Source: Eledone cirrhosa (Eukaryota). From it: a stretch of DNA of 64,000 bases. Position numbers and translations under genes: made by a program. The stretch spans positions 1-64,000 of the forward strand of contig CAXHJY010001618.1 of assembly GCA_964016885.1 (NCBI GenBank), read 5' to 3'. Of the stretch, positions 11,123 to 60,312 are shown piece after piece. How positions within the stretch are numbered: the stretch's first letter is position 1; each line of letters starts with the position of its first letter. The notes below the pieces were generated by a model that was not told the origin of the DNA, did not search any database, and saw only the letters and a list, made by a program, of their open reading frames with translations.

Positions 11123-11204
11123 GTTTTTGTAAACAAACATCCCGAAATAAGCCGTACAGTGTCTAGCAACCATCGTTGCTCATTTGTTCAACACTGACAA
11201 AGGA

Positions 11205-11247
11205 ACGCTGTACTAGTTTCAAGCTTATTAGCTATCGTCAGCAACGT
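11205..11247 (-). ncRNA. Minimal type-I hammerhead ribozyme (element B)
   Basis: acgttg-CTGACGA-t-agc-taataa-gct-t-GAAAC-ta-GTA-cagcgt: 6-bp stem I, intact core, palindromic ACTAGT stem III. Confidence 0.85.
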
Positions 11248-11595
11248 ATACCTTCCTGCCAGATGGTTGAACGTCTGAAAGTAAATACTTTCCTTATGCA
11301 TATTAACGGCTGAGCAGCCTAATTTGCATATCGAGTGAGTTAATCGGCCGGGGTACCGAAAAAGATAAACGGAAAAAATGAAACGAAATTTCATTTCTCA
11401 CTCTTAGTACGGCTGTTACTTAAATATAAGTATGTATACGTACATACATATATGTATACAGACGTACAATTTCGTTTCATTTCCGGTGCACCCGGCCGAT
11501 TAACCCACTCGATATGCAAATTGGGCTACTCAGCCGTTAATATGCATAAGGAAAGTATATACTTTCGGATGTTCAACTAACTGGCAGGAAGGTAT

Positions 11596-11638
11596 ACGTT
11601 GCTGACGATAGCTAACAAGCTTGAAACTAGCACAGCGT
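11596..11638 (+). ncRNA. Hammerhead ribozyme copy with U16.1 to C change (element B), probably inactive
   Basis: acgttg-CTGACGA-tagctaacaagctt-GAAAC-ta-GCA-cagcgt. Confidence 0.7.
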
Positions 11639-11956
11639 TCCTTTGTCAGTGTTGAACAAACCAGCAACGGTGGTTGCTAGACACTACGGCTTAATACGGG
11701 ATGTTTGTTTACAAACACACCGAGCATTATAATAAATGTTTGGTGAATCCATACGTACATATATATATGTGTGCATGTATGTATATATATATACATACTA
11801 CTGTACGTCTGTATACATATATGTATGTACGTATACATACTTATATATATATATATATATATATATATATATATATATATATATATATATATATATATAT
11901 ATATATATATATATATATATATTTATATATATGTATGTATACATATATATATATAT

Positions 11957-12062
11957 AATTGTTTCCACCTTTGGCACAAGGCCAGCAATTATACAGTGCA
12001 TTACTGGTACTTATTTTATCGACTCCGTAAGGATGAAAGGCAAAGTTAACCTTGGCGGGATT
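11957..12062 (-). mobile_element. tRNA-derived SINE fragment (octopus OR-like)
   Basis: Reverse complement of ccgccaaggttaactttgcctttcatccttacggagtcgataaaataagtaccagt; many copies in the window. Confidence 0.75.
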
Positions 12063-12089
12063 ATCTACATATATATATAATACAATAAA

Positions 12090-12170
12090 TAGGAACCAGT
12101 AAGACCCCGACGGCTGAGCTCAAGCCGTTTCGACGGCTAATTCTGGTTCCTTACCACATTTCCTTCGTTA
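12090..12170 (-). mobile_element. Family D PLE-type fragment carrying an HHR 3' half, flanked by a ~14-bp direct repeat
   Basis: Minus strand gccgtc-GAAAC-ggct-tgagctc-agcc-GTC-ggggtc gives a perfect stem III and GUC triplet. tataatacaataaa occurs on both sides. Confidence 0.7.
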
Positions 12171-56501: not shown

Positions 56502-56659
56502 CAGTAGTCAGTAACCGGTGGTCCGTGAGAAAATGTTGGTGGTCCGCAGAAAAATGTTAATGTATTTATCTTTAGAAAATAAAATTCATATTAGTGGTCC
56601 GTGGGATTTTAAATTATGAATTTAGTGGTCCGTTAAGTCCGAGACGTTGGCGGCCGCTG
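56502..56659. mobile_element. hAT-Charlie-like MITE
   Basis: CAG...CTG termini, 8-bp TSD gtctagaa/gtttagaa (NTCTAGAN type), four internal gtggtccg repeats. Confidence 0.75.
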
Positions 56660-58125
56660 GTTTAGAATGATTGTGTGTGTCAGTGACACGTGTATGTGAG
56701 CAGAACTTCAACGTGATATCCTGTTCACTCAAACATTTAGCTTTCTAACGAACGGGAAGTCGCTATTTGTGAAAGATTTCACTCCTCCTACTAACACGTA
56801 TCGCATCTACGAAGAGAATGTTTCATTGACTTGAAAGCTTTGATTCGATTTAGGAAATTTCAGAAAATGGGCCAAGCGGGAATTGAACCAAATATGCAGA
56901 TTTATTTTTCCCGATAAAATTTAACCAATATTCGTTAACACCCACATAAATAAAACTAGAAAGAGATAAAACCACAAAACCAAAGAAAGTAAAAATGGCG
57001 AGAAAGAAAGTTGTAATACGATCACTGGCGCCACCTGTATTCTACCCAGTTTTTACGAATAGATTTATATGCCCAGCTAAAGGTAGCTACATCTTAGGAT
57101 TTAACAATCCCCACGCCGCTCTCATAAATCTTCATTTTACACCACATTATACCAGGTAATTAAATAATTAAACTGCAGGCACTGGTTTGGATTAAAAGTT
57201 TTATATAAAAAAAAGTAGCAGTTATTCGTATATATACACACAAACATACATACCCTATTCATGTCATATATCTATCTATCGAGCTAGGGTTCTACATACA
57301 TACATACATACATACATACATACATACATACATATATGTATGGGGACTTGGTATATCTGATATATCTTTAAATGTATGAAATTTACGCACACACACACAA
57401 ACACATACATATATATATATACATATATATATACATACATGCATATATGCATACATATAATCTGAATCTTGCATATTGGGGATGTACAGAAATACGGGTA
57501 CGTATATATATATATATGTATGTATAGTCTCGGGTACATTCCATTAGTTTTACCTATCTCTGCACCCAGACTAACATAATAAATTTAAAGATAGACTCAA
57601 TAAATCAATTCATTAAAATGGTAAAATATAATAAAATAAATAAATAAACAAAAATATGACTGTTAAGTATTTTCCCTGTGATATGGAAAAATAGGCACCA
57701 CAATTTTAAAATTATTGTTGTATTGGTGCTGGGACTGTCATGGCATCAGTCCTATTTATACAACAAGAGTTAAAAGTCTGAGTTAGTTTTGGAGCGACAT
57801 CATCATTTCTTAACGAACCATAAAATCATAGGATATATAGCGAGATTTATCCCAGAATATTACAAGAACAAAGTGTTTCGAATTCAAGGTTCCAAACACT
57901 GAGTTCATTTTTAGGAGATGTAGAAAGAATGAACGGTCTAATAGACTGGGAAAGGGTTACAATAGAAACTGATAATTGAAGAGCAAGTAATCAAACGTCA
58001 TTTTCCAGTGTGCCACTCTCTGCATCCTTTAACACTGTTTTCAACTCTGTCTTACTTTGTTTTCCTAGTTCTATTTCTCGGTAATAGTGGCGTTTATTTT
58101 GGCTGTGGTTAAGGTCGTTGCGTAG

Positions 58126-58513
58126 AGGCAGTGGCATCAACAATGGAAGACATTGGCAGAGGTGGAAAGCCATTTTCAGCATCTGCATGAGATATTAAGT
58201 TTTGGCTGCATTTGCTGTTATTGTTACTATAACTACGGGGGCTCTTGCTGTTAGTGTTTTTGTTATTGTTGCTGTTATTGCTGCTGTTATCATTGTTTTC
58301 TGAATGTTGCCTATTCCTCTTCTTGGACAACCGGCCATTCCATTCAGCGGACACAACCTTTTTGTTCACCAAGTTAATTTCCACTAAACACCAAAGGGCG
58401 TGTTTCATAAACAAACACGTACTTATCCCCTGATGTCTATAGGGTGAGCTAAACTAACCGGCTCACAAAGATACTGGTTAGTTTGACTACACAAAAGTCA
58501 CAAAAGTTAAGTA
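58126..58513 (-). repeat. Interspersed repeat duplicated at 61520-61908
   Basis: About 390 bp with a common boundary at ...caaaagttaagta; identity high by eye. Confidence 0.85.
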
Positions 58514-58694
58514 CGTTAGGTTGAATAACAGTGTGAAAATAGAACAACTTACCGAACGATTTATGACCTTGTGTCGAGACACGAAGCAATAAATAAATAA
58601 ATAAACAAATAATAATAATAATAATAGTAATAATAATAATAATAATAGAAATAACAAAATTTCCAGTTAAATAACATCAATGACTGAGTCTCAA

Positions 58695-58852
58695 AGAAGA
58701 AGAAGAAGAAGAACAACAACAACAGCAACAGCAACAATAATAATAATAATAATAATAATAATAATAATAATAATAATAATAATAATAATAATAATAATAA
58801 TAATAATAATAATAATAATAATAATAATAATAAGAAGAAGAAGAAGAAGAAG
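58695..58852. repeat. Compound (AAG)/(AAC)/(AAT)n microsatellite
   Basis: Seen directly. Confidence 0.95.
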
Positions 58853-59650
58853 TGGTAAAACTAACTAGATTATAAATTAATAGATTTGGCACTTTGTAAA
58901 TCAACTTTTGCTTTGTTGATTTACGAATGAGAATAGTTTCTCGTAGCGTTATTAGGTTTATATGAGACTGGCTAACATAAGTAAATGTAGTATTACGCTT
59001 TTAGGAGAACAAAGACAGAAAGTGGAAGAAGGAGTAGATGCGGGAATAAAAAAAAAAATGGAAAACAAATTTAGACATCGTTTACAACACGACTTGAAAT
59101 ATTGGCTTCAGTTGTGTAAATTAAAGTCACACGTGGAGTACGCACAAATACATACATGTATAAATGCATAGATACTTCTATACATTCTCGATGTGTATAC
59201 ACACACACGCATACATATTATATATGTGTCTGTGTGTTTTTAGGTATTATATATAAACGCTTATATATATATATATATATATGCGTGTGTATATAATGTG
59301 TATATAATACATAATGTTTTTAGGTATTATATATACACGCTTATATATATATATATATATATATATATATATATATATATATATACATATATATATATAT
59401 ATACGCGTGTGTATATAATATATATAATATATAATATATATACGCGTGTGTATATACCTAAAAACACAGAGACACATATATAATATGTATGTGTGTGTGT
59501 ATATGTATGTATGTATGTATGTGTGTATATATATATATATATATATATATATATATATATATATATATATATATATGTGTGTGTATATTTATATATATAT
59601 GTATGCATATATATATACACACACACATATATATATACATATATATATAT

Positions 59651-60312
59651 AAATATAAGTATGTATACGTACATAGATATATGTATACAAACGTACAGTA
59701 GTATGTATATACATACATACAAGCACACATATATATATATGTACGTATGGGTTTACCGAACATTTATTATAATGTTCGGTTTGTTTGTAAAACAAACAGC
59801 ACGAATTATTAGCCGTACAGTATTCGGCAACCATCGTTGCCATTTTGTTCAACACTGACAAAGGAACGATGAACTAGTTTCTAGCTTATTAGCTGTCATC
59901 AGCACCGTATACCTTCCTGTCAGTTGATTGAACGTTTGAAAGTATATACTTTCCTCATGCATATTAACGGCTGGGCAGCCTAATTTGCATATCGAGTGAG
60001 TTAGTTGGCCGGACGTACCGAAAACGATAAATGGAAAAAATGAAATTTCATTTCTCACTCTTAGTACGGCTGATACTTAAATATAAGTATGTATGCGTAC
60101 ATACATATATGTATACAGACGTACAGTAGTATGTATATACATATATACATGCACACATATATATATATATGTAAGTATGGGTTTAACGAACATTTATTAT
60201 ATTGCTCGGTTTGTTTGTAAACAAACAGCCCGAAATATTAGCACTACAGTGTTTGGCAACCATCGTTGCCTTTTGTTCAACAATATACAGTATACTACTG
60301 TACGTCTGTATA
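59651..60312 (-). mobile_element. HHR-bearing element B, locus 2: 428-bp tandem unit (about 1.5 copies) plus a short inversion
   Basis: aaatataagtatgtat occurs at 59651 and 60079; 60293-60311 mirrors ~60112-60131. Confidence 0.85.
59866..59908 (-). ncRNA. Minimal type-I hammerhead ribozyme (element B)
   Basis: acggtg-CTGATGA-c-agc-taataa-gct-a-GAAAC-ta-GTT-catcgt; palindrome AACTAGTT. Confidence 0.85.

Follow-up and report, generated by a model that had tools for sequence, protein, structure and literature searches.

The animal retrozymes without long terminal repeats (non-LTR retrozymes), described from mussel, coral and axolotl and including newt satellite 2, carry one type I hammerhead ribozyme in each short, low-GC tandem repeat that lacks an open reading frame (ORF), and Penelope-like elements (PLEs) of the same genome were proposed as their mobilisers (Cervera and de la Pena 2020, PMC7229834). 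PLE protein, a predicted dimer, was found in vitro to cut AT-rich DNA on both strands, and it starts cDNA at two internal sites of the RNA; the sequence from one to the other is the 'tail', described as unique to PLEs (PMC11167929). For animal retrozymes, the mover and the circle as template had been proposed earlier, not shown. We analysed a 64,000-nt window of the Eledone cirrhosa genome (GCA_964016885.1, contig CAXHJY010001618.1, positions 1 to 64,000), in which a ~428-nt unit is found at two loci. This repeat is a non-coding, high-copy element with a conserved hammerhead motif. By sequence criteria it is an animal non-LTR retrozyme, the canonical 10.1-11.1 pair excepted, and its fixed 3' ends, tail and inverted arms are the 'tail' signature of PLEs. 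We consider PLE-type mobilisation of the unit highly probable.

Ends, multimers and copies in the window

A 30-nt ribozyme pattern gave 25,387 exact matches in the genome (3.0 Gb) and the reversed control gave 0, so that the abundance of the motif is not due to chance. We mapped 122 overlapping loci (70 chosen by likeness to the window copies, 30 in genome order, the remainder as wider array views), which reduce to 110 sites with 295 unit copies. Clustering separates four subfamilies, A, A2, B and C. The unit is 420-430 nt long (466-540 nt in subfamily C) with a GC content of 34-38%, arrays reach about 25 units, and all 11 hammerhead core columns are intact at 86 of 107 sites.

The 3' ends of the unit are fixed. 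After 4 of 181 distinct 3' ends had been discarded as alignment artefacts of an internal palindrome, 148 of the remaining 177 were located at two sites: 73 at E1, which is the end-to-start junction named in the first-pass annotation of this DNA, and 75 at E2, 54-59 nt beyond E1 (elsewhere, 29). The genome-order subset showed the same, with 40 of 46 ends at E1 or E2. Alternating TA follows 54/73 E1 ends and 68/75 E2 ends. No 30-nt bin is free of 5' ends (n=180), which are more frequent at the onset of low complexity, and 4 of them lie near the predicted cleavage site versus 5 expected. The unit had been called circularly permuted; the scatter of the 5' ends agrees with that description and the fixed 3' ends do not. 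An inverted unit adjoins 94 of the 180 5' ends. The 51 head-to-head insertions comprise 34 of type E1/E2, 2 E1/E1, 1 E2/E2 and 14 with one other end; the E1 and E2 ends are therefore paired in 34 of the 37 classifiable cases, where independence would give about half mixed. Contigs from three public runs of one sample (X1-X3, of unspecified kind, which may be the assembly's own reads) have loose (TA)n ends that pile up at 60081 and 60038.

The insertion hallmarks of PLEs are thereby present, namely 5' truncation, partial tandems, an inverted 5'-truncated arm and a tail on one end only, and E1 and E2 are best read as two internal start sites of a reverse transcriptase (RT). Fixed termini together with a connection to an RT/GIY-YIG ORF had been named in advance as evidence against copying from a circular or multimeric RNA. 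Fixed 3' termini were found, and a link to such an ORF was not found in the 122 loci; since the fixed termini correspond to the two internal priming sites known from PLEs, a circular template is not refuted by them. The proposal that the junction is intrinsic to a small non-autonomous hammerhead retroelement is supported, as is the formation of its multimers at insertion.

The age of the multimers was assessed at 19 sites where direct repeats occur together with an inverted arm. The direct distances rise with the inverted ones (rho 0.89), and there is no difference between the two (medians 4.2% and 4.5%), so the tandem units arose when the element inserted. Homogeneity and shared rare variants mark the young arrays, and old arrays are star-like. 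For instance, we detected 6 units with 7 fixed variants, 4 units within 0.4% of each other with 12 fixed variants, and 3 identical units, including an inverted arm, with 4 fixed variants; the units of a 9-unit two-armed insertion are within 1.6%. Homogeneous arrays with fixed rare variants require that a single monomer was copied several times over, for which a circle is the simplest source. Tandems as old as their insertion, homogeneous young arrays and the missing pile-up at the cleavage site together favour rolling-circle copying of a monomer circle, and we regard a circular monomer template as the somewhat better supported prediction from these sequences.

Both window loci agree with this picture. 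Locus A consists of two head-to-head copies with different starts, as the first pass had seen. The left arm, of subfamily A (11116..11468, minus strand), starts in the AT-rich part of the unit and crosses the junction; a later deletion that reaches into a neighbouring repeat has apparently removed its 3' end from about unit position 300 on. The right, inverted arm (11477..11846, plus strand) ends at E1 and continues into the (TA)n target run (11847..11957, unstranded). Locus B, of subfamily B (59651..60282, minus strand), is the tandem of period 428 that had been reported: it comprises 1.47 units with a self-overlap of 207 nt (90.8% identity), has a variable 5' start and ends at E1 into (TA)n, and a 28-nt inverted stub of the unit (60292..60319, plus strand) is located at its 5' end. 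The junction is identical at 11417-11435 and 60074-60092, as claimed for both loci, and at locus A it is the left arm only that contains it. The tail between E1 and E2 measures 59 nt in this arm (11365..11423, minus strand, E1 between 11424 and 11423) and 54 nt at locus B (60027..60080, minus strand, E1 between 60081 and 60080). Comparison of the two arms of locus A shows 19 differences over 246 sites, and the overlap of locus B has 10 over 99 informative sites, so both insertions are old. The longest ATG ORFs at these loci have 68 and 79 aa, in agreement with the earlier statement that there is no real ORF; the 68-aa ORF, which starts from an ATG in the tail, was rejected as a gene, being unconserved and varying from <20 to 68 aa across 122 copies.

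Hammerhead motif, RNA folds and sister families

The hammerhead motifs of both loci have type I topology, with a stem I of 6 bp that runs on into a long bulged helix, a stem II of 4 bp and a palindromic stem III of 2 bp; at none of the window loci are two on the same strand. The type I motif of the locus A left arm (11205..11247, minus strand) has U-U at 10.1-11.1 and a predicted cleavage between 11211 and 11210. The one of locus B (59866..59908, minus strand) has C-A at this pair, with cleavage predicted between 59872 and 59871. In the right arm of locus A (11596..11638, plus strand) U16.1 is changed to C at 11631, and this copy is predicted to be inactive. The claim that core changes are restricted to the tolerant positions N7 and H17 was therefore wrong, because the 10.1-11.1 pair is mismatched at both loci and U16.1 is changed in one arm.

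U-U at 10.1-11.1 is present in subfamilies A, A2 and C, C-A in B, and G-C only in the sister family D. U10.1-U11.1 is reported to occur naturally and to be the most active of the mismatches (PMC3088659), and it was also found in the motifs of the PLE families F1 and F2 (described below) and of the repeat family E. Rfam gave no match at the gathering score; among the 150 listed of 336 weak matches no hammerhead was present, and AT-repeat microRNA models dominate.

In stem I, locus A has a U-G pair where locus B has G-U, a swap that had been interpreted as compensation. It is real and fixed between the subfamilies, but it reflects one event in one lineage and is weak by itself; covariation proper is seen with the sister families. 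Core and Watson-Crick stem columns that differ between subfamilies number 0 of 31, versus 75 of 323 overall (P 2e-4; core columns alone, P 0.05). In 23 copies of A, A2, B, C and D, 12 of 27 named pairs are changed on both sides, compared with 1-2 in slid controls, a suggestive result as the copies represent about five lineages rather than 23 independent sequences. The covarying pairs are located in stems I and II, in the extended helix and in a long-range helix joining the tail to the region past the ribozyme. Structural selection on the ribozyme stems is supported by these comparisons. The window B unit folds with a z of -9.2 and natural units folded as circles give z from -7.2 to -11.5 (A2, B and C, -7.2 to -8.0 with 30 shuffles each), with -4.3 for family E, scores to which internal AT-rich palindromes contribute.

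Families D and E were found through a motif catalogue of the sampled loci. Family D (466-469 nt; L123:740-1612, L196-L220, L255 and L260, in arrays of at least 13 units) is collinear with the whole unit and has G10.1-C11.1; 9 of its ends are at E1 and 14 at the tail. Family E (L111:1970-3030, L256-L258 and L261) consists of hammerhead repeats of 310 nt; it has the loop II of the unit but a different palindrome in stem III, and its two-end tail measures ~36 nt. It forms young arrays of 5-7 units with inverted arms, and in D and E alike the ends follow the two-site pattern with (TA)n.

The octamer is used by promoters of the small nuclear RNA (snRNA) type. An octamer motif upstream of the ribozyme (11322..11329 in the locus A left arm and 59983..59990 at locus B, both minus strand) is conserved in subfamilies A, B and C and in family D, and it is absent from family E. 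From its sequence it is possibly an internal promoter element; newt satellite II uses an snRNA-type promoter (PMC2220036).

Other hammerhead-like cores of the window are located at 27309 (minus), 27430 (plus), 53136 (minus), 53151 (plus), 62666 (minus) and 6959/7186/7713. Several form head-to-head pairs, and they are likely short PLE-type insertions of other families.

PLE families and the probable partner of the unit

The candidate mobiliser is F1, an autonomous PLE family with Hydra-type motifs, of which the window has a 5'-truncated copy (37416..39344, plus strand) with an ORF fragment and no homology to the unit. F1 is represented by 61,396 first-look candidates, with open frames of up to 713 aa. 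Its copies stop at one site or ~89 nt beyond, followed by (TA)n, and F2 shows a like pattern. The translated natural ORF of F1 has a C-terminal GIY-YIG, a DKT motif and a CxCx5C linker, matching the published Hydra-clade description, and F1 has the (TA)n target and hammerhead-like motif of that clade as well; in its hammerhead-like core U4 is changed to A in all copies inspected. Pfam found no significant family in the F1 protein.

Homology of the unit to PLE ends (terminal repeats, pLTRs) was not detected in 30 F1, 28 F3 and 15 F2 loci, and these three families were ruled out as direct parents by its absence. Unit matches inside F1-F3 loci are unit copies at varying places; the one in L143, inspected in full, was inserted into a TA run. 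PLE pieces beside the unit were also rejected as parents (F2 beside locus B; F3 beside L092, L021 and L143), having shared or interrupted TA runs instead. The F2 fragment at 60332..61070 (minus strand) abuts with its 3' end the same (TA)n run as locus B and has its own hammerhead-like motif; it is accordingly a neighbour, not a parent. No RT and GIY-YIG ORF is present in the unit, and where it continues past the tail it enters the next unit, never an ORF, in the 122 mapped loci.

In 4 of 181 flanks the unit 3' end is fused on the same strand to a PLE 3' piece, the TA spacer being very short or absent: two to F1 (L004:1915 and L058:1968, both beginning at the same F1 base) and two to F3 (L035:2856 and L060:1273). 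They hint weakly at template switching. We considered whether F1 has a special 5' end at the joining base and rejected this (11 genome-wide pattern matches versus 3 at a control base), and none of 9 further F1 copies inspected at this base was fused to the unit. The fusions involve both F1 and F3, and end homology is lacking, so that the partner family is not pinned; other PLE clades are also present in the genome. A Hydra-type PLE is nevertheless the likely partner.

In addition to F2 at 60332-61070, further Hydra-type fragments of F2 and F3 were observed in the window at 41485-41833, 43038-43428 and 50670-50800, and F2 and F3 each have their own hammerhead-like motif and (TA)n ends. Sampled locus L125 has a fragment of another Hydra-type family, F5, and in L123:1-560 a GIY-YIG fragment of a PLE from a different clade precedes a hammerhead-like motif of its own. 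A small unclassified GC-rich element with inverted arms lies beside (TA)n runs at ~12085-12170 and 41200-41280, and in L093 and L188. The window also has a 153-bp tandem array (2148-3705; 10.2 copies, 99%), a 57-bp array (4810-5614), and a Helitron-like fragment (PF14214) and two broken LINE-like elements (15347-16789, 22654-25743, 31925-35194), with PF00078 at 33127-34350 within a broken LINE-like element.

Template, rival explanations and known systems

We suggest that the unit is likely copied into (TA)n by the RT/endonuclease of a PLE, on the sequence evidence probably from a ribozyme-cut and re-ligated circular RNA. A tandem array would be transcribed, perhaps from an internal octamer-containing promoter, and adjacent hammerheads, probably acting as dimers via the palindromic stem III, would excise the unit, which a host ligase could close into a circle. 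The PLE protein, most likely of Hydra type, would nick both strands of a (TA)n run, and cDNA would be primed internally, at E1 from one strand and at E2 from the other. The RT could circle the template for part of a turn up to several turns, the two cDNAs would be joined 5' to 5', and later DNA duplication may lengthen very long arrays.

Several points weigh against this reading. The unit is known here from genomic sequence alone, and its cleavage, transcript and circle are predictions. The ribozyme of A, B and C is without G10.1-C11.1 (19 of 23 aligned copies are unpaired there), and the C-A of subfamily B, unlike the tolerated U-U (PMC3088659), is not vouched for. Minimum-energy folds are without stem III, which is expected of ribozymes acting as dimers (PMC4209133), and in subfamily B also without stem II; the covariation comes from few lineages. 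About 9 of the 73 E1 calls finish in pure TA and may be internal-microsatellite ends. A 5-unit ABAB array (G000:C1:19314839-19316772) has adjacent units 4.8% apart and alternate units identical, and a 25-unit array ending at E2 (G000:C3:72261557-72272381) has 2- and 8-unit block duplications, so that growth at the DNA level, circles of dimers or artefacts of assembly contribute as well. A parent PLE with homologous ends was not found among F1, F2 and F3.

The template of PLE-driven insertion could instead be linear RNA that reads through a young tandem array and stays uncut, with a side role or none for the ribozyme. We consider this rather unlikely, yet it is the most serious rival. Read-through of a young array could mimic the homogeneity of the new one, the missing 5' pile-up at the cleavage site is equally compatible with it, and the ABAB and 25-unit arrays exist. 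The only PLE studied in vitro, that of anole, inserted without need for hammerhead cleavage, its hammerhead mutants being unaffected and uncut RNA being the main substrate (PMC11167929), and 8 of 9 Xenopus dimers failed to cleave (bioRxiv 10.64898/2026.07.22.740005). Array-fixed rare variants with near-zero internal divergence, however, need a monomer bottleneck, subfamilies are seldom mixed within a site (2/57, by a crude marker), and the ribozyme columns are conserved and covarying. A reading of the unit as no more than the pLTR of an undetected autonomous PLE, or as a product of internal deletion in such a PLE, is improbable. Such an origin agrees with the PLE-like character of every insertion hallmark and with the match of 24/57 Xenopus retrozyme families to known transposable elements, nearly all PLE termini (bioRxiv 10.64898/2026.07.22.740005), and the parent search was limited to F1, F2 and F3; but the missing homology to the ends of these families, the passage of the unit into the next unit and never an ORF in the 122 mapped loci, and the collinearity of family D over the whole unit, by which the closed unit is old, argue against it. 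A remote origin from a pLTR is possible. Spread at the DNA level as a satellite or minisatellite, by unequal crossover or Helitron-type rolling circle with the hammerhead as a passenger, is the least probable explanation. The block duplications in long arrays and the Helitron remnants in the window are in its favour, and it is largely refuted by the end statistics: strand-polar ends (3' fixed, 5' scattered), E1/E2 pairing, inverted arms and RNA-level covariation would all be unexpected.

Copying from a monomer circle may be extended to a broader and frankly tentative idea, toward which we lean less than we doubt it: a lineage of circular RNAs of viroid size (310-470 nt; three families or more) could parasitise Hydra-type PLE proteins by structure alone, without shared sequence, with a PLE dimer that uses two fixed sites of a single circle to prime the two target strands and rolls around it. 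If true, one-circle dimer priming explains the PLE tail, inverted arms and multimers in one step.

The unit shares with the animal non-LTR retrozymes of PMC7229834, beyond the type I hammerhead in each ORF-less repeat, tandem repeats of ~150-450 nt in dimers to multimers, a weak palindromic stem III, a highly paired predicted circle and tens of thousands of copies. These have the canonical G10.1-C11.1, where the unit has U-U or C-A, and their circles and cleavage were demonstrated, whereas those of the unit are predicted. For retrozymes, the accessible text of that source describes neither a PLE tail with two sites nor inverted arms nor targeting of (TA)n. Plant LTR retrozymes are likewise non-coding and hammerhead-bearing with a circle-based model, and differ by a type III ribozyme in the LTRs, a primer-binding site and polypurine tract, 4-bp target duplications and a Ty3 partner (PMC4918200); the unit has type I topology, tandem units and (TA)n flanks instead. 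We found no report of a two-site tail on a retrozyme or of this family in the literature searched, although the library of PMC13282606, which in its accessible part lists PLEs and many unclassified repeats and names no hammerheads, and paper supplements may hold the family under another label.

Insertions of Hydra-clade PLEs (Craig et al. 2021, PMC8557442; Frangieh et al. 2024, PMC11167929) share with the unit 5' truncation, partial tandems, the inverted 5'-truncated arm, the one-end tail, the (TA)n target and a hammerhead motif. The unit is unlike PLEs in having no RT/GIY-YIG ORF, a tail of 54-59 nt (~89 nt in F1), no F1-F3 homology and many-unit arrays. Non-autonomous Chlamys elements, for instance MRC1, share 3' ends with autonomous families, and Chlamys elements are mostly without hammerheads (PMC8557442). 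Vertebrate retrozymes were interpreted as PLE derivatives (bioRxiv 10.64898/2026.07.22.740005), with the same conclusion that PLEs mobilise hammerhead tandem repeats; the argument there is from co-occurrence and pLTR homology, and for the unit, where this homology is absent, the evidence is the insertion footprint.

Taken together, the kind of element is already known and ordinary, and the detail is informative. The two-site footprint in a family of >25,000 copies adds unusually direct genomic evidence of PLE mobilisation, the family supplies exact priming sites and sister families that mark conserved RNA structure, and a PLE family with ~700-aa open frames in the same genome makes the partner and the PLE tail/inversion mechanism testable in vitro.

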